IMG/VR virus record: IMGVR_UViG_3300025162_000046
Coordinates: 9,816 to 73,815 of that record
Length of the DNA stretch: 64,000 nucleotides
Strand: one strand, 5' to 3'
Source: a virus
Part shown: piece after piece, positions 12,463 to 52,172 of the stretch
Position numbering within the stretch: the stretch's first letter is position 1
Layout of the letters: every line of letters begins with the position of its first letter
Made by a program: the position numbers and the translations under genes
The notes under the pieces: generated by a model
Told to the model about the DNA's origin: nothing
Databases searched by the model: none
Seen by the model: only the letters and a program-made list of their open reading frames with translations

Positions 12463-13584
12463 ATGATTTTCCACCAAAATATTTCCCGCGATTTATTCTC
12501 CCAAAAGTATATGATAAACGGGGAAACCACCCCGGATCAGGTATTCCACGATATAGCAGTAGAAATCTCTCGACCCGAAAAACCCGGAATTCGCCTTAGA
12601 GTTCAAAATGAGTTTGAGTCGATTATGACCGAGGGTTACTTTATTCCTGGCGGCCGAATTTTGGCTAACGCACGCACTTACGGGCATCTAAAATCGCGAA
12701 ACTATAATAATTGCTTTACTATTAACATTGAAGATAACATGGAAGGCATCTATATGTCCGTGTATGAAGATGCCATGATCAGCCGTATGGGTGGTGGAGT
12801 GGGGTTCAATGTATCTAAATTGAGACCCAAGGGAAGCAAAACTACCAATGGCGGCGAAGCATCAGGCCCCGTCTCTTTCCTTCGTGTGTTCGACGCATCC
12901 GCCAAAACCATAAGCAGCGGTGGGGCACGGCGCTCAGCGCATATTGCTCTTCTGGATATTTCTCACCCGGACATCGAAGAGTTCATTACCGTCAAGCAAG
13001 GGGACAAAGATAAAAAACTTTCTCAATTCAACATCTCTGTAATCATCACCGATGCTTTTATGAAGGCGGTGAGTGAAGATGCTGATTGGGATTTGGTATT
13101 CGAAGGAAAAGTTTACAGAACTCTAAAAGCCCGAAAATTATACGAGACACTCGCTAAGAATGCCTATGAGCACAACGACCCGGGCGTTTTCTTTGTTGAC
13201 ACCGTTCAACGAGATAATAATGCTTGGTGGGCATTTGTTATGGATGCGTGTAATCCCTGCGTCGCAGGAGCGACTCAGGTAGAATTCAGAATCGGAGACA
13301 GTCCCCCTCACAGTATCGCCATACAGGACCTAGCAGAAATCTACAAGGGGCTAAAATCTGGTCAGTACATCTACGTAAAGTCCTACGATGAGAAGACCCA
13401 ACAAGTTGTTTGGAAGATGTTGCAAGGAGCAAACCTCACTAAGAAGGACACTGAGCTGCTTCAGATCACCGATACAGAAACTGGGAAGGTTATTCGCTGC
13501 ACCCCGGATCATAAGATTCTTACGAAGCGAGGTTGGGTCGAGGCTCAGGCTCTCGAGGCTGATGACCAGATTATCCAGGCGTAA
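12463..13584 (+). CDS. nrdJ: Class II (B12-dependent) ribonucleotide reductase N-part fused to split intein N-fragment
   Basis: FIPGGRIL, NNCF, GGGVG, ASGPVSF, GGARRSA, FNISV, DPGVFF, ACNP, then intein Cys1 at 13258 (CVAGATQV...IRCTPDHKILTKRGWVEAQAL) and a stop. Confidence 0.93.
   Translation: MIFHQNISRDLFSQKYMINGETTPDQVFHDIAVEISRPEKPGIRLRVQNEFESIMTEGYFIPGGRILANARTYGHLKSRNYNNCFTINIEDNMEGIYMSVYEDAMISRMGGGVGFNVSKLRPKGSKTTNGGEASGPVSFLRVFDASAKTISSGGARRSAHIALLDISHPDIEEFITVKQGDKDKKLSQFNISVIITDAFMKAVSEDADWDLVFEGKVYRTLKARKLYETLAKNAYEHNDPGVFFVDTVQRDNNAWWAFVMDACNPCVAGATQVEFRIGDSPPHSIAIQDLAEIYKGLKSGQYIYVKSYDEKTQQVVWKMLQGANLTKKDTELLQITDTETGKVIRCTPDHKILTKRGWVEAQALEADDQIIQA
13258..13581 (+). mobile_element. 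Split intein N-fragment (108 aa) in NrdJ
   Basis: Block A CVAGATQV, block B CTPDH; ends at the canonical split point ADDQII. Confidence 0.9.
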
Positions 13585-13841
13585 GCAACATCAACTCACA
13601 GAGATCAAGGGCTGCATCGAGAGAGGTATCCTCGGATCTAGCTTTCAGGAGATATCAATCGAAGCTCCAAAAGATGTGTGAGACTATTATGAACCGGCAA
13701 GCAATAGGCTTTCCAGAATTAATAAGAGATATAGATAGGATAGTGAAAGAAGAAAAGGAGAGAGGCTTGATACCAAGAACGTTTGGATTGAGTAGACAGT
13801 CCATAGATAAATATAGAGTACGGGAGGTATTCGAGTGTTAA
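13566..13841 (+). pseudogene. Probable homing endonuclease remnant between the intein halves
   Basis: About 92-codon open frame (...RRYQSKLQKMCETIMNRQAIGFPELIRDIDRIVKEEKERGLIPRTFGLSRQSIDKYRVREVFEC*) whose stop overlaps the IntC start, as at the sbcC locus; no catalytic motif visible. Confidence 0.4.
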
Positions 13842-13936
13842 CCATTGAGAAGGTTCGTAATGAAGATGTGTACGATCTATCCGTCGAAGGAACTCATAAT
13901 TTCTTCGGCAATGGAATGGTTGTACATAACTGTGGT
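13835..13936 (+). CDS. nrdJ: Exon 1 of the nrdJ C-part: split intein C-fragment (32 aa) plus Cys-Gly extein
   Basis: GGGAGG RBS then GTG 13835: (M)LTIEKVRNEDVYDLSVEGTHNFFGNGMVVHN|CG; frame differs from IntN; in-frame TAG at 13814. Confidence 0.88.
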
Positions 13937-14171
13937 GGAATTTAGCGCCTCAGTATAATCACAGGGTGAATTGCTGGAAAGCTAAGCGGAAGTAAGCTAA
14001 TCAGCAGCCAAGCGCGGTAGGGATACCGCGAAGGTTCAGAGACTAACAGCCGAGTCCAGATCGGACAGTAATGCTGACACGAGCGCCCTGCTCACGAAAG
14101 TGATGAAGATATAGTCCGATACTCCAGTGAAAATTGGAGAGCTATGATAAAGAGCATAGCAATAACAGATG
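13937..14171 (+). ncRNA. Group I self-splicing intron (235 nt, no ORF) in nrdJ
   Basis: 5' exon ends in U, intron ends in G; core elements AATTGCTGGAAA (P), AATCAGCAGCC (Q), GTTCAGAGACTAA (R), AAGATATAGTCC (S); P3 CAGGGTG/CGCCCTG; P10 GGAATTT pairs with exon AAATTCC; removal restores C-G-E-I-P. Confidence 0.93.
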
Positions 14172-15638
14172 GAAATTCCCATGCCCGCATATAGCCTCTG
14201 TTGCCTCGGTGCACTCAATCTAACAAAATTCATAATAGATCCCTTCACACCTGTTGCGCGTTTTCATTTTCAAAAAATGGCAGAGATTGTGAAGACCGCC
14301 GTCAGGCTATTAGATAATACGCTTGACGCAACACAATACCCTCTTGAACGCATAGAGACTTTCTCAAAACAATGGCGCCGCATTGGTCTTGGTTTTACTG
14401 GCCTAGGTGATGCGCTTGCTATGCTTGGAATGAAGTATGGAGATGAGAGCAGTGTCGCGTTTTGCGAGATCTTTGGTCGTTCTCTTCGTGATGCTTCCTA
14501 TCGAGCATCGGTTGAACTGGCGAAAGAGAAAGGTATGGCTCCTGGGCTTAAATCCGGCTTCTTCAAAAACAAACCTGATCCGCGCCTTACCTTAGGCGAC
14601 TTCATTACCAAGATGCCGTTCGATCTTAGGAGAGATATTGGCAAATATGGCCTTCGCAACATAGGACTCAATACCGCAGCACCAACCGGCACCATCTCTT
14701 TAACCGTTGGAAACAATTGCTCATCGGGGATTGAGCCGATCTTTGAGTATCAATTTACCCGTAATATTCGCACCGGAACCGGAGATGAGACGAAGCCCGA
14801 GATAGTGCGTGACTACGCTTGTCTTATTTGGGAACAAAACCATCCCGGCGAGCCGCTTCCCACTTACTTTGTTACTGCGTTGGAGTTGGAGCCTCGCAAG
14901 GCGATTGATATCCAGGCGGCAATTCAAAAATATATAGATCATAGCATCTCAAAAACTTTTAATTTCGATGGTAAAAAATTGGGGTTTGAGGAATATAAAG
15001 ATCTATTTACTTATGGTTATAAATCGGGCTTGAAGGGATATACTAGTTTTAATATTTCTGGTAGTATGAAAGGTGTTCTTGAATCAAGAGCACAGCCTAG
15101 TGAAGATAAACTAGATTCCTTTGTTCTTAGATCTAATGCTCCTAAACGCCCGAATGAACTGCCGTGCGACATACACTATGTCCATGCTAACGGGCAGGAC
15201 TTTATTGTTCTCGCTGGCCTACTCAACGGATCGATTTATGAGATTTTCGTTGATGAGCAGAATGGCCATGATTTCGGTTCTCTCAAATCCGGCAAGATCA
15301 TCAAAAAAGGAAAAGGAGAGTATTCTCTCATAGACCCCGAAGGAAAAATGTTGGTTGAAGGGCTATCAAAAAACTTCAATGGAACTTGGGGGTCTCTTGC
15401 GAGGATGATTTCTATGTCGTTGCGACACGGAGTTCCCCTCCAATTTATCATTGACCAGTTACAGCGCTCAAAAGAATTCTTGGGGTTTGAGAAGGCGGTA
15501 TCTCGCGTGCTCAAACACTATATGAAAGAAGGCGAGGTATATGAATCGAAGGATAAATGTTCAAAATGTGGTGGTAAGCTAATATTCCAAGAAGGCTGTT
15601 ATGTTTGTAAATCGTGCGGCAATTCGGCCTGTACTTAG
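14172..15638 (+). CDS. nrdJ: Exon 2 of the nrdJ C-part
   Basis: EIPMPAYSLCCLGALNL, RRIGLGFTG, TAAPTGTIS, SSGIEP, IDHSISKT, TSCPD-like segment and C-terminal CSKC...EGCYVCKSCG. Confidence 0.92.
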   Translation, partial: EIPMPAYSLCCLGALNLTKFIIDPFTPVARFHFQKMAEIVKTAVRLLDNTLDATQYPLERIETFSKQWRRIGLGFTGLGDALAMLGMKYGDESSVAFCEIFGRSLRDASYRASVELAKEKGMAPGLKSGFFKNKPDPRLTLGDFITKMPFDLRRDIGKYGLRNIGLNTAAPTGTISLTVGNNCSSGIEPIFEYQFTRNIRTGTGDETKPEIVRDYACLIWEQNHPGEPLPTYFVTALELEPRKAIDIQAAIQKYIDHSISKTFNFDGKKLGFEEYKDLFTYGYKSGLKGYTSFNISGSMKGVLESRAQPSEDKLDSFVLRSNAPKRPNELPCDIHYVHANGQDFIVLAGLLNGSIYEIFVDEQNGHDFGSLKSGKIIKKGKGEYSLIDPEGKMLVEGLSKNFNGTWGSLARMISMSLRHGVPLQFIIDQLQRSKEFLGFEKAVSRVLKHYMKEGEVYESKDKCSKCGGKLIFQEGCYVCKSCGNSACT

Positions 15639-15775
15639 ACCCCCGCACTCACCTAACTGCCCGAGAGATTTGGGATTATGATGAGAGAAGAATCAAAGAA
15701 TTAGAAGTCTTAGGGTATCAAGTTCAAATTGTTTGGGAATGTGAGAGACCCAAACCCAGCCGAACGACTAATTAG
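15638..15775 (+). pseudogene. C-terminal remnant of a Vsr/DUF559-like endonuclease
   Basis: Manual translation DPRTHLTAREIWDYDERRIKELEVLGYQVQIVWECERPKPSRTTN*; no start codon. Confidence 0.75.
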
Positions 15776-15789
15776 CAAGAGGGGCTAAC

Positions 15790-16209
15790 ATGCGGGAATC
15801 TGAACAATTTGATGACCTCACTACCACAGATGAGGATATGCCTTCTCCTGAAACCACCTCAATGACTCTCGAAGATTACTTTGCCGGTGAGGATCCTGAG
15901 TTCAAACCCATTCTTCCCAAGGATGACGGCGTAGGCCAACTCCTACACGATAATATTGAAAATGATCTTGTGGAAGCGGATAGGCCTAGAATGGATGACA
16001 GGGAGAACACTTGCCCTCGTTGTGGAAGCGAAGAAATAGACTATGATGATGGCGCAGGCAACCCAAAATGTTATACGATAGAATCTCCTAAAAAATACCG
16101 CGGGGAACTTGTTGCGGAAGAGGATGTTCTTTTTGAGGAGAGCACCAAAAACACTGAGAACACGTATTCATTTTACGGAGTAGATAGTTATTTATTGCCA
16201 AAAGGCTAA
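15790..16209 (+). CDS. Hypothetical acidic protein
   Basis: 139 aa; CPRC; ACTAATTAG upstream. Confidence 0.65.
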   Translation: MRESEQFDDLTTTDEDMPSPETTSMTLEDYFAGEDPEFKPILPKDDGVGQLLHDNIENDLVEADRPRMDDRENTCPRCGSEEIDYDDGAGNPKCYTIESPKKYRGELVAEEDVLFEESTKNTENTYSFYGVDSYLLPKG

Positions 16210-48577: not shown

Positions 48578-49003
48578 ATGATTACTCTAAACAGTTTGAC
48601 TATCAAAAACTTTATCTGCGTTGAGTCCGCCGATTTCGATTTTATCAACAACTATATCACAGTTTTCTTTGGGGCGAATGGTAGCGGCAAATGCATCGAA
48701 GGCTCTACAAGAATCAAAACCAAACAATTCGGGGAACTCCCAATTAAAGAACTTTTTAAGAAATTGGAAGTTTCACCTTCTGTTAAAATGGCTCTTCCCA
48801 AAGAAGGACTTGAAGTTTGGACTGATGAGGGGTGGAAATCCATTGAGGCATTCTGGATCACCCCGCCCGAGCCTTTGTGGGAACTGGAATTAGATGATGG
48901 TATAGTTCTGCGAGCCAGTGCAGACCATCGTGTAATGACGCAGCGCGGCTGGGTGAAGCTAAAGGATCTCCAGGAATCAGATGAGATTCTGCGGGAAGAA
49001 TGA
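48578..49003 (+). CDS. sbcC: SbcC/Rad50 (gp46-like) N-terminal 38 aa fused to split intein N-fragment
   Basis: LTIKNF...GANGSGK, then Cys1 at 48692 (CIEGSTRI...RASADHRVMTQRGWVKLKDL) and a stop. Confidence 0.9.
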   Translation: MITLNSLTIKNFICVESADFDFINNYITVFFGANGSGKCIEGSTRIKTKQFGELPIKELFKKLEVSPSVKMALPKEGLEVWTDEGWKSIEAFWITPPEPLWELELDDGIVLRASADHRVMTQRGWVKLKDLQESDEILREE

Positions 49004-49048
49004 CAATCTATCCGGATACTCCCTACTAATTAATTCAGGGGATTTATC

Positions 49049-50155
49049 ATGGATTTACAAACTCTTGCAAAAAATCTTTATGGTGAGGATTATTCTTTAT
49101 GGCAACTCGGTTCGTTGAGGCGACAACTACAAAAAAAGAAAATAACCGAAGTTGATATTACTTGGAGAGAAGAAGAAAATGGTTTCGGCGCTTGGGATAT
49201 GATTCATGGTATCCCTTTATCTTGTAATACTTATTGGCATAGCTATGCTTGCACTTCTTGTGGTAAAAAAATTATTGATATAGATCGAAATCATAAACGC
49301 CGGGCTAATCCTACCCTTTGCGGGCATTGCAGCAAATCAAAAACTTTAACAGAAGTGAATCGAAATTCCAATAAAGTAAAAAACGCAGAGATTTTTGCTG
49401 ACCCTCTTCTAGGCTCTATTCGGAAAGAAAAACTAAGAGAAAATAGGATTCGAATAAACCAAACTGTGATGGCAGATTTTATTCGAAACTTGTCGCCGGA
49501 GAGAAAAGAACAAATAGCCATTCAGAAGAAACAAACTTGGGGGGCTCGTCCAGTAGAGGAAAAAAAGGAAATCAATAAAACTCGCAATGGCTATCTTTAT
49601 AAAAGTGAAAAGGAGATACAAGAACGAGTACAAAGAGGGGTAGAGACTAAGAAAAAAAACTTAGCTAAACTGTCCTCGGAAGAGATCCGACAAAAAACCT
49701 TAGAGAGGGTGGCAAAAATGAAAGCTACCATTCGATCTAAACCTAAAGACCTGAGGTTTAATCACCCTGAGCGTAGATATGTAAAGGGGAAGCAAGGTGA
49801 GGTAGGGGGTGTTTATTTTCAATCATCTTACGAAGAAGCCGTATTACAGTTTTGTTGCATGAAAATGTATAAGATACAAAGAGGGCCGGCACTTGAATAC
49901 TATAATCCAATAGGAAAAAGTATTTCTCTTTATTTTGTGGACTTTTTGATAAACGATACTCTTTTAGTAGAGATAAAAAGTAATTATACTTGGGATCAAA
50001 ATATAGAAATCAATAAGGCGAAAGAAAGATGCGCTCAGTCGTATGCACAAGAACAAGGGTTGACCTATCTGACGCTTATATTATCCAAGGAGGATATCAA
50101 GGATGTCAACAAGATTCTCGAAAATACGTTCAATAAAGAATTTAGAGAGAACTGA
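49049..50155 (+). CDS. Free-standing endonuclease (zinc ribbon plus C-terminal TnsA-like PD-(D/E)XK) between split intein halves
   Basis: CTSC...CGHC; FQSSYE...YFVDFLINDTLLVEIKS. Confidence 0.8.
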   Translation: MDLQTLAKNLYGEDYSLWQLGSLRRQLQKKKITEVDITWREEENGFGAWDMIHGIPLSCNTYWHSYACTSCGKKIIDIDRNHKRRANPTLCGHCSKSKTLTEVNRNSNKVKNAEIFADPLLGSIRKEKLRENRIRINQTVMADFIRNLSPERKEQIAIQKKQTWGARPVEEKKEINKTRNGYLYKSEKEIQERVQRGVETKKKNLAKLSSEEIRQKTLERVAKMKATIRSKPKDLRFNHPERRYVKGKQGEVGGVYFQSSYEEAVLQFCCMKMYKIQRGPALEYYNPIGKSISLYFVDFLINDTLLVEIKSNYTWDQNIEINKAKERCAQSYAQEQGLTYLTLILSKEDIKDVNKILENTFNKEFREN

Positions 50156-52172
50156 AAATTGCTATGATATTCAGGTCGCAGATATTCAGCGGTACTTCTC
50201 TAATGGAATTGTAAGCCATAATTCTAGTATTTTTGAGGCCATCGCCTTATGCTGGACAGAGCGCAGGAGAGGCGACTCCTATAAGGATTTCATCAAGCAC
50301 GGGACTGATTCTGCAGAGATTCACCTTGTTGCCAGTATTCACGGCGAACCCATTCAATTCGATGTGGAGATTCGTGATAAGAAAGGGGCGACTCCTTTTC
50401 AACGAACTATCACTTATAAAAAAGAGAAGTATGTAAATTCAGAGTGCACTACGCTTCTCACCTCCTTCGATATTGATTATCTCCAACACATTATGTTCTC
50501 TATGCAAGGTGAGAATAACATTACTGATCTCAAACCCTCCGAAAGAACTAAACTTCTCAAGCGTATTTTCAATTTCGAGTTTGAATCTCAATTGAGCCAA
50601 CTTGATAAATTGGTTGAACAAGAAGAACAGAACAGCCTCGTGCTCAAAACTCGCGTTGATGTTTTATCTCATATGAAATTTGAATATGAGCAAGCGGAGC
50701 AAACCCTTACTCTCGACAAGCGCAGCGAAATAGAAAATCGCATTACCGAGATCGATGAAATCATAAGAGTGCAAGAACAAAATCAACTTCTTCAATCCGA
50801 AACTTCTCATCGACTCGAAAGTCTCCGCGCCCAAGGTCAAGCTGCGTCAGCACGCAAGCATTCTATCGAAAAAGATATCAGTGACCTTAATAGTTCGTAT
50901 ACTCGACTACTCGGGGATAAGAATCGACATAGTCAAGCATTACTTACTCTCCCCGATTCCGTGAAACTCGAAGAAGAAATCAAAGAGAAAACCGCGGCAA
51001 TTGAATCGTTCAAGATTCTCGTGGAGCAAAATCGTCTTCTTATTCAAGAGAAGGAAAACAATCTCGGATCTCGTCAAAGCCGTATCCTTGAACTTAGGAA
51101 TCACATCGTAGCACATAAGCAAGGCATTTGTCCTCAGTGTGGGCAAGACACTCATCCTGAAACCGTTCCTGAACTTGAGACCTCTTTGGAATCAGTTGAA
51201 CAATTGTATGAGGAGCTCCTCTCACAAAAAATGATGCTTGAGACCGCTGAGAAAGGTGCCGAGAGAAACATCTCCACCTATCAGGCGGCAATACCTAATC
51301 TTAGAGAAAAAATCAAATCGTCTGCGGATATGAAAATCCAGTTTGAGAGCATTTTCAAAACCATCGAAGAAAGCACCCAGCAAACAAACGGAACCATTGA
51401 AATTCGAAAATCCACTTTGTTGGAAGTCGAGAATCAGATCAAAGAACTCGAACAGCAAATTGAAGAGATCTCTCCTAAATTGGTTCGAATGATTCCTACC
51501 ACATCTCTTCTCAGTGAGAAGAGTGGGTTAGCTAATCAGGTTCAGAGGCATCTTGCTGTCATCGCTCGCAACGAAGTAATTGAGCGTAAAAATATAGAGA
51601 TGAAACAAAAAGAAGAAGGGAACAAACAACTACTGATAGACCTCAACCGGCAACAAAACGATTTGCTGCTATCGACGAATAATTATAAAGACGCGAAGCG
51701 CATATTGGAAGTAGACCTACCCAATTATATCATTGTCAAAGCGTGCTCAAAACTTGAAAAACATATCAATCATTTTATCTCTGAGGTCAAGGAAGGGATG
51801 GTAGTTAGGCTATTCCAAGCGCGCTCGGGAGTTGAATTTTTCTATTCCCCAGTAGGAGAAGTAGCAAATTCTGAAGATTGGACCTCTACAAAAATGGCAT
51901 CGGGATTTGAACGGGAATTGCTATCAGCCGCGTGGAGAGTAGCGTTAGCAAGGGCTTATAATCTACACGCGCTTATGCTTGATGAGGTGGATAGCGCGGC
52001 TAACACCTTCTCATCTGAAAAAATGTTTAGAGAGATCGCTAATCTCACCGGCTTTGAGCAGCTCTTCATAGTGAGTCACAAGCCTGAAGTAGTCGATATT
52101 TTATTACAGGAAAATGAGAGAGTGACCGCGTATTTCGTCCAAGATGGTATCTTTACTCGTCAAGAATACTAA
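50103..52172 (+). CDS. sbcC: Split intein C-fragment (40 aa) fused to SbcC/Rad50 C-part
   Basis: AGGAGG RBS; KIRSIK...CYDIQV...YFSNGIVSHN|SSIFEAI; coiled coils, CPQC hook, ASGFE signature, LMLDEVD, IVSH. Confidence 0.92.
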   Translation: MSTRFSKIRSIKNLERTENCYDIQVADIQRYFSNGIVSHNSSIFEAIALCWTERRRGDSYKDFIKHGTDSAEIHLVASIHGEPIQFDVEIRDKKGATPFQRTITYKKEKYVNSECTTLLTSFDIDYLQHIMFSMQGENNITDLKPSERTKLLKRIFNFEFESQLSQLDKLVEQEEQNSLVLKTRVDVLSHMKFEYEQAEQTLTLDKRSEIENRITEIDEIIRVQEQNQLLQSETSHRLESLRAQGQAASARKHSIEKDISDLNSSYTRLLGDKNRHSQALLTLPDSVKLEEEIKEKTAAIESFKILVEQNRLLIQEKENNLGSRQSRILELRNHIVAHKQGICPQCGQDTHPETVPELETSLESVEQLYEELLSQKMMLETAEKGAERNISTYQAAIPNLREKIKSSADMKIQFESIFKTIEESTQQTNGTIEIRKSTLLEVENQIKELEQQIEEISPKLVRMIPTTSLLSEKSGLANQVQRHLAVIARNEVIERKNIEMKQKEEGNKQLLIDLNRQQNDLLLSTNNYKDAKRILEVDLPNYIIVKACSKLEKHINHFISEVKEGMVVRLFQARSGVEFFYSPVGEVANSEDWTSTKMASGFERELLSAAWRVALARAYNLHALMLDEVDSAANTFSSEKMFREIANLTGFEQLFIVSHKPEVVDILLQENERVTAYFVQDGIFTRQEY

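Follow-up and report, generated by a model that had tools for sequence, protein, structure and literature searches.

How can a virus make a working ribonucleotide reductase (RNR) when the Asn, Cys and Glu of a single five-residue active-site loop are encoded in three separate pieces? The question is raised by an nrdJ gene in IMG/VR virus record IMGVR_UViG_3300025162_000046, a 73.8-kb record with a CheckV completeness of ~37%, of which we analysed bases 9816–73815 (hereafter the window; 64,000 nucleotides (nt), in whose numbering all positions are given). Near-identical DNA was found in lake-water and freshwater metagenomes from several studies. Within the window, nrdJ is interrupted by the two halves of a split intein, IntN and IntC, by the remnant of a putative homing-endonuclease gene lying between them, and by a small group I intron that begins 6 nt after the intein junction (Table 1). 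We judge it about 80% probable that this is a working class II (B12-dependent) RNR gene that has been invaded by a composite selfish cassette. One active-site loop would then have to be rebuilt by RNA cis-splicing and protein trans-splicing together. By inference, the need for both is strongly supported, because relatives with an empty site encode the predicted product, the catalytic residues and the intron core are intact, and the layout is under purifying selection.

The two flanking pieces together cover the NrdJ family almost end to end. The N-extein matches Pfam Ribonuc_red_lgN and Ribonuc_red_lgC (profile positions 2–213) and has 78% amino-acid (aa) identity to both L002 and L004, two related loci that are described below. 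Exon 2, whose first codons are GAA ATT CCC ATG CCC (EIPMP), matches Ribonuc_red_lgC at profile positions 219–521 as well as Pfam TSCPD, and ends in a Cys-rich tail. In NCBIfam NrdJ_Z (TIGR02504), the N-terminal piece corresponds to positions 17–282 (225.6 bits) and exon 2 to positions 284–596 (225.7 bits), with the Cys-Gly position alone absent between them; taken singly, neither piece reaches the 399.95-bit cut-off, as the gene is divided. Neither extein contains a stop codon or a frameshift, and the RNR barrel matches in the 73.8-kb record are those of this nrdJ only. The N-x-C-x-E loop is complete only after in-silico splicing, which brings together NP, CG and E and gives exactly the NPCGE that empty alleles encode without a break.

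Direct reading of the sequence confirmed every position that an initial annotation of this DNA had given for the N-extein, IntN, the GTG start of IntC, its GGGAGG signal and the intron. The same annotation had allowed for the stop codon after IntN and the change of frame being assembly errors. Logan contigs (rather than raw reads) of runs X2 and X5, from two studies, span at least 12921–15800 with no gaps and 2–3 substitutions; run X5 carries no flag as a possible source of the record. Because two independent assemblies reproduce the order of IntN, stop, spacer, IntC and intron, the layout is not an assembly artefact.

Table 1 Features of the interrupted nrdJ locus, in window coordinates
Feature	Position	Strand	Description
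nrdJ N-extein	12463..13257	+	265 aa, ends ..DACNP; supplies Asn of the N-x-C-x-E catalytic loop
IntN	13258..13584	+	108 aa (13258–13581), CVAGAT start, block B TPDH; stop TAA 13582–84
3′ remnant of free-standing homing-endonuclease gene (putative)	13587..13841	+	84 open codons and stop; nuclease domain deleted
Shine-Dalgarno-like GGGAGG	13822..13827	+	7 nt 5′ of the IntC GTG; read from sequence
IntC	13835..13930	+	32 aa, GTG start, blocks F and G, ends VVHN
TGT GGT (Cys+1, Gly)	13931..13936	+	final 6 nt of exon 1, with U13936 as 5′ splice-site U
Group I intron without open reading frame (ORF)	13937..14171	+	235 nt; in-frame TAG 13943–45; terminal G 14171
nrdJ exon 2 (rest of C-extein)	14172..15638	+	488 aa, EIPMPAYSLCC start, then stop

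Both intein halves belong to recognised families. IntN matches TIGR01445 (intein_Nterm, E = 1.8e-7), and its nearest solved structure is that of the NrdJ-1 split intein (8UBS, E = 1.2e-10). IntC, which lies in a different frame from IntN, matches TIGR01443 (intein_Cterm, E = 3.4e-11) and Pfam Intein_splicing (E = 1.8e-9), and aligns over its full length with IntC of L002 and L003. The intein residues Cys1, T82-P-D-H85, ..NEDVYD..THNF.., VVHN and Cys+1 are all present in the window, and the splicing residues are invariant in the window, L002, L003 and L023, with the exception that IntC of L003 terminates in KN rather than HN. Cys1, T82xxH85 and the position of the IntN stop are common to L002, L003 and L023, and all three loci also give IntC its own ribosome binding site and start after that stop; in L002 this signal is AGGAGG followed by GTG at the same place. 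A scan for promoters and terminators between the intein halves yielded nothing useful above shuffled expectation. From these conserved features, IntN and IntC are predicted to trans-splice covalently. As the initial annotation pointed out, the Cys that carries the thiyl radical is also the +1 nucleophile of the intein; this is true, but it is general to all inteins at this site (PMC2677866).

A covariance-model search bore out the annotated 235-nt group I intron. Rfam RF00028, with a gathering threshold of 50 bits, matches 13927–14139 at 75.8 bits (E = 1.9e-17 for the whole window; model positions 1–253), and this hit is the sole Rfam match in the window. The related nrdJ introns of L002 and L023 score 71 and 76.3 bits, respectively. 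In P1, exon C-UGUGGU and the first intron G pair with the internal guide CGCCTCAG at 13946–53, read as CGCCUCAG in the helix, and U13936.G13947 forms a wobble. The splice-site U makes this U.G wobble in all three nrdJ introns, each of which also keeps the terminal G (G14171 in the window). For P10, AAUUU (13939–43) is able to pair with AAAUU of exon 2 (14173–77). The reading frame is retained only by this pair of splice sites, and their ligation restores CGEIPMP. The J6/7-P7 and J8/7 segments equal the Rfam consensus exactly, while an insertion between P7 and P3′ appears to form two extra hairpins, as in subgroup IA.

Folding and covariation are consistent with a preserved ribozyme. Compensatory changes were found at 10 of the 65 predicted pairs among the three nrdJ introns (window, L002 and L023) and at 17 of 38 pairs among nine family members, after six relatives from other phage genes were added; the sample is small and its sequences are related. 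The minimum free energy of the intron fold has a z-score of −3.8, and the fold is steadier than every shuffle. The intron is predicted to self-splice. Members of its family are present in at least 11 other IMG/VR contigs, with 75–81% core identity and differing P1 sequences, and it is therefore a widespread small ORF-less phage intron. In L007–L017 (IMG/VR contigs, mostly from sample 3300045988), the family sits in other phage genes, with the hairpin loop GAUAAAGAG in common and with other guides. A search of viral contigs for the exact guide-sequence pattern returned the L002 contig only.

Together, these parts suggest a route to the enzyme. Both cistrons are probably transcribed on one RNA. 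Cistron 1 would produce the N-extein (265 aa) fused to IntN (108 aa), whereas cistron 2, from its own GTG, would begin with IntC (32 aa) and Cys-Gly, after which the RNA is broken by the 235-nt intron. In self-splicing, guanosine would attack after U13936 and the exons would be ligated after G14171, which would join ..AAC TGT GGT to GAA ATT CCC.. (predicted junction, AACTGTGGT followed directly by GAAATTCCC), and the spliced cistron 2 would be translated into a 522-aa IntC-CGEIPMP.. protein. Association of IntN with IntC, followed by trans-splicing with Cys+1 as the nucleophile, would generate a NrdJ of 755 aa in which the loop again reads N-P-C-G-E, with Asn, Cys and Glu each contributed by a separate coding piece. 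The predicted trans-spliced product would contain a peptide spanning ..CNPCGEIPMPAY.. (that is, ..DACNPCGEIPMPAY..). On unspliced RNA the frame runs, as the initial annotation had read it, from IntC-CG into GGA ATT TAG, and ribosomes would stop three codons into the intron and release IntC-CGGI. It is plausible that this short protein could consume N-halves into N-extein-CGGI, which would be a side effect of the layout and is not evidence of design.

Relatives of the locus form an allelic series at the same site, written here as NP/CGE with a solidus at the junction. They were collected by protein-guided scans of IMG/VR and JGI/ENA metagenomes and classed by tblastn and Rfam. The site is empty, with C or another residue before N-P-C-G-E-I-P.., in L004, L019, L020, L021, L027 and L029; the more diverged L028, L031, L033 and L036 are likewise uninterrupted at the site, and L032 is roughly contiguous only. 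In L004, L019, L020 and L021, CNPCGEIPMP is unbroken and equals the predicted ligated product. The same split intein as in the window, but on its own, with a 27-nt spacer and without the intron, is present in L003 (=L005=L022). The split intein is combined with an intact 338-aa ORF and the intron in L002 (=L018), and with an ORF remnant and the intron in the window. The nrdJ of L023 has five interruptions, including the split intein with an endonuclease remnant and the intron. The layout of intein plus intron is thus present in three lineages (the window, L002 and L023), and among the alleles found none has the intron only; it always accompanies the split intein. Two other inteins, both contiguous, occupy the same junction in L025 and L030.

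The exon sequence around the junction differs between these classes. Empty alleles have TGT or TGC followed by GGN at the Cys-Gly position. Intron-bearing alleles have GGT and GAAATT, which are the bases required for the splice-site U and P10, whereas their closest empty relatives L004, L019 and L020 have GGC and GAGATT. Similarly, MPAY is found in all three cassette alleles versus MPPY in the four closest empty alleles (L004 and L019–L021). A survey of 50 IMG/VR records with a related IntN gave no further intein-adjacent intron (30 other matched loci lay outside the survey), and a search for small IntC-only ORFs, used as a proxy for IntC followed by an intron, returned the L002 protein itself only.

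How long the arrangement has been maintained can be gauged from the window and L002. Synonymous sites between the two are saturated, so that synonymous divergence (dS) is not computable by NG86, and nonsynonymous divergence (dN) is 0.20 in the N-extein, 0.28 in IntN, 0.18 in IntC, 0.24 in the C-extein and 0.40 in the endonuclease remnant. Nucleotide identity is 82–84% in the intron versus 63–71% in the coding flanks. Together, these values therefore indicate that function has been preserved in both intein halves and in the ribozyme across a long divergence.

A different pattern emerges from L002 and L023. Their flanks are ~77% identical over 4 kb upstream and 67–78% identical through most of the C-extein, whereas identity is 83–98% in IntN (dS 0.25, versus 1.97 in the C-extein), 100% in IntC, 96% in the intron and 90–93% over the first 60 nt of exon 2, after which it decays. 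Because the 3′ high-identity tract lies beyond the intron, the intron was within the transferred unit. Judged from these identities, the IntN-(endonuclease)-IntC-intron segment was exchanged between the L002 and L023 lineages as one unit, together with ~30–60 nt of flanking exon. Conversely, L002 and the empty L004 are ~90% identical in their flanks, but only 60% over the first 30 nt of exon 2 and 77% over the last 30 nt of the N-extein. The identity pattern bears the signature expected from endonuclease-driven homing with co-conversion.

The endonuclease that might have driven such transfer survives in the window as a fragment. The remnant includes a 55-aa ATG-initiated ORF (13674–13841) with a 7-nt overlap with the IntC start. 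By tblastn it aligns with residues 249–327 of the 338-aa ORF of L002 (48% identity, E = 3e-25), and over the final 83 residues of the full-length 324-aa homologue P0004 its identity is 66%. Both L002 and P0004 represent intact versions of the gene; in L023 it has been deleted in a different-looking way, again with its 3′ end retained. This 3′ end overlaps the ribosome binding site and start of IntC. The window gene is already decaying, and the cassette copy that holds it has probably lost its mobility, persisting because precise loss is hard. We also considered the 250-nt spacer as a second intron whose removal would make the intein contiguous. This candidate was rejected, as the spacer has no Rfam match even at E ≤ 1, and it is also excluded by the homology to the endonuclease gene and by the L003 spacer of only 27 nt.

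The intact homologues (L002, P0003, P0004 and P0006) share the motif ..PDFFIYD..(x)..VEIKS. An AlphaFold model of an intact homologue (pLDDT 72) gave weak but coherent Foldseek matches (E 0.02–0.2, probability up to 1.0), the best being TnsA (1T0F, E 0.023), the catalytic domain of I-Bth0305I (3R3P, E 0.074) and VRR-NUC, and restriction enzymes were also matched. PHROG 'endonuclease' families matched weakly (E 1e-3 to 4e-5), and Pfam and PDB-sequence searches with the endonuclease gave no match. The modelled structure hints at a restriction-endonuclease-like (PD-(D/E)xK) fold for the intact protein, with putative nuclease activity.

Whether the nuclease serves the intron as well is a further question. 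Possibly, although we consider it rather doubtful, the endonuclease and the intron are a collaborative-homing pair in which the nuclease mainly recognises CGEIPMP-coding DNA 3′ of the junction. This DNA would survive insertion of the intein, so only the intron 6 nt downstream would immunise the carrier, and the endonuclease loop of the intein would provide a harmless landing place for the nuclease gene, ~100 nt upstream of the intron. Collaborative homing has been described for cyanophage psbA and F-CphI (Zeng et al. 2009; Bonocora and Shub 2009; both as cited in PMC2814812). As in that system, an ORF-less group I intron lies beside a free-standing endonuclease gene and is inherited together with it; unlike in that system, the endonuclease gene lies inside an intein, ~100 nt upstream of the intron.

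Other readings of the locus must be weighed against a working gene invaded by a composite selfish cassette. If parasite insertions had inactivated nrdJ, so that no enzyme was made from it any more, the truncated endonuclease gene would fit, and Campylobacter phage RNR genes that degenerate under their intein load have been published (PMC3653736). However, the exteins are free of stops and frameshifts, the splicing residues of both intein halves are intact, the intron has a canonical core with compensatory changes, and dN lies far below saturated dS in exteins and intein halves across three lineages. Function retained over such a divergence argues against a pseudogene, which we regard as extremely improbable. 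It is also conceivable that the intron and the split intein invaded separately and are neighbours only through a common preference for conserved sites. NP/C is a hot spot at which four different inteins occur in this NrdJ clade (the split intein, the additional LAGLIDADG intein of L023, and those of L025 and L030), introns and inteins both prefer conserved sites (PMC2814812), L003/L005/L022 have the split intein without the intron, and the intron family resides in other genes with other guide sequences. Such a coincidence is nonetheless unlikely: no allele found has the intron without the split intein, and the high-identity tract between L002 and L023 extends unbroken across IntN, IntC and the intron and on into exon 2. 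Separate origins with later linkage would be compatible with the composite cassette, and the coincidence bears on origin only.

The initial annotation had favoured a regulatory AND gate, in which guanosine-dependent intron splicing and protein trans-splicing would set the level of active RNR and IntC-CGGI from unspliced RNA would cap the N-half into a dead product; on this reading, IntC-CGGI would be a titrating inhibitor. Both splicing steps are logically required, and the window (CGGI-stop) shares with L002 and L023 (CGEF-stop) the position of the in-frame stop, three codons into the intron. By general intein chemistry, a four-residue C-extein with Cys+1 could in principle splice. This early stop, however, sits in the P1 loop, on which P1/P10 pairing places constraints, and regulation need not be invoked to explain why it is conserved; moreover, close relatives do without the combination, their gene being either uninterrupted or broken by the split intein only. 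For the td, nrdB and nrdD introns of T4, a regulatory role was long suggested but is not known to have been established. Nothing in the data suggests that the level of RNR is controlled in this way, and we consider the gate very unlikely. The comparative data show the behaviour of selfish elements instead, because the locus belongs to an allelic series, its endonuclease is decaying, the block was transferred with co-conversion tracts, and five elements have accumulated in L023.

Several points nevertheless weigh against the view of a working gene carrying a composite selfish cassette. Block transfer is seen between L002 and L023 and not for the window copy, whose divergence is about that of its flanks. 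The high identity of intein and intron could partly reflect selection, although selection cannot explain 100% identity at synonymous IntC sites. The endonuclease fold has been assigned from a weak match, and the known lineages with the layout number only three. A second RNR may be encoded elsewhere in the phage, given that the record is ~37% complete.

Several further observations were made in the relatives and in the window. At L023:4501–10066 (contig Ga0272446_1001614), a contiguous LAGLIDADG intein (SLRRG.. to ..ITGN) lies directly before Cys1 of the split IntN, and these tandem inteins at one junction must therefore splice in sequence; further downstream, at ..DHSISK/T.., another split intein comes with a 343-aa endonuclease ORF of its own. 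The N-extein of this locus is also broken after ..TDAFM (L023:5100–5390), as is that of L034 (824–991), each with a ~48-aa tail, a stop, AGGAGG, a new ATG and a ~15-aa leader. The ~250-nt break in L023 has no intein-sized domain and no Rfam intron, and in both loci it may be a genes-in-pieces break of the Aeh1 type discussed below. The contiguous inteins of L025 (5290–6252) and L030 (5284–6336) are two unrelated LAGLIDADG-type inteins, that of L030 ending in ..GQ rather than ..HN. In L004 (5150–5340), the reading frame changes midway through the C-terminal half, giving two overlapping ORFs, through either a sequencing error or a real frameshift. L130 (G044:C1:133800–141200), the sole case in the survey of 50 records to come near the arrangement, belongs to a 316-kb, AT-rich virus record; its RNA polymerase beta-like gene contains at least three contiguous inteins, and a group I intron match (58 bits) lies between two coding pieces, kilobases from the inteins.

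The window record itself has further intein-type elements besides those of nrdJ. At 48578–52172 is a second fractured gene, for an sbcC/Rad50-like ATPase whose Walker A motif is split by an IntN (ending ..ILREE). This locus contains a 368-aa ORF with a C-terminal ..YFVDFLIND..LVEIKS nuclease motif, overlapped by an IntC (..VSHN/SSIFEAI), and is without an intron. A short ORF at 15614–15775 overlaps the nrdJ stop, and by eye its tail, ..LGYQVQIVWECE, resembles the C-terminus of a Vsr/DUF559-type endonuclease; a Pfam search with this ORF (15614–15772) gave REase_MTES_1575 alone, at a non-significant E of 0.064. Because a related contig in run X8 has 96 other bases there, 15560–15765 is a variable spot.

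The anatomy of the window gene is closest to that of the fractured genes reported by Dassa, London, Stoddard, Schueler-Furman and Pietrokovski in 2009 (NrdA-1 to NrdA-7, NrdJ-1/2, gp41 and IMPDH), in which an endonuclease gene lies between split-intein halves (PMC2677866). Like those, it is a phage-like DNA-metabolism gene whose two intein halves have between them a stop codon, then an endonuclease gene and a fresh start codon. It is probably a fractured gene in this sense, with split-intein halves flanking a free-standing endonuclease gene, and a small endonuclease-less intron is genetically linked to it 6 nt downstream. The fractured-gene model predicts later loss of the endonuclease (PMC2677866), and the remnant in the window corresponds to this step. 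NP/C is the commonest RNR intein site; NrdA split inteins occupy this junction, whereas those of NrdJ-1/2 lie one residue further towards the C-terminus (PMC2677866). The window insertion resembles NrdA-1 to NrdA-7 in being directly N-terminal to the thiyl-radical Cys, and resembles NrdJ-1 in the sequence of its IntN; its host is NrdJ, but its site is of the NrdA type NP/C, unlike that of NrdJ-1/2. Identity with the NrdJ-1 or NrdJ-2 allele was rejected, as the junction is NP/C..N/CGE and the empty NPCGE allows no other register. Also unlike the published fractured genes, the endonuclease is not of the GIY-YIG type and has a weak fold likeness to the Vsr-like domain of I-Bth0305I, and a group I intron co-travels 6 nt after the junction; the passages on introns in that paper concern endonuclease ORFs in recA introns.

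Genes that need both RNA and protein splicing have precedents among RNRs. The Trichodesmium RNR gene, in work ascribed to Liu et al. in 2003, reportedly contains four inteins and three group II introns. In nrdE of Bacillus phage SPbeta (a group I intron as well as an intein) and of Brochothrix phage A9, an intron is combined with a contiguous intein (PMC3653736). As in the window, a single RNR gene in each of these cases needs both kinds of splicing, and the elements lie in conserved motifs. Their inteins, however, are contiguous and cis-splicing, and as far as checked are not described as adjacent to, or moving with, an intron; in the window a split intein and, only 6 nt from it, an intron interrupt the same five-residue loop, and the pair belongs to a block-transferred unit. 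Another precedent is NrdA of Aeromonas phage Aeh1, which is in pieces through insertion of mobE (PMC3045599). There too, the large subunit of a phage RNR is split into two polypeptides by a homing endonuclease gene, but the Aeh1 halves have no intein and assemble non-covalently, whereas the complete intein halves of the window predict covalent ligation. Full-text literature searches gave no published account of a group I intron that lies next to a split intein and is transferred together with it. The selfish elements are each known; these comparisons indicate that what is new is their linkage 6 nt apart in one catalytic loop and their apparent joint spread.

For annotation, the locus carries a warning: an essential gene built in this way will come out of ORF calling as two or three 'fragments'. 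For protein engineering, a natural split intein that is related to NrdJ-1 and has a Cys+1 junction is an addition to the toolbox. The allelic series represents several predicted stages, from an empty site through the split intein only to intein, nuclease and intron together, then a decaying nuclease, and finally five elements in one gene. If collaborative homing does operate here, it would define a three-part mobile element, composed of intein halves, nuclease and intron, as a recurrent class. The nrdJ locus offers a concrete case in which cooperation or hitch-hiking of parasites at the RNA and protein levels can be tested.

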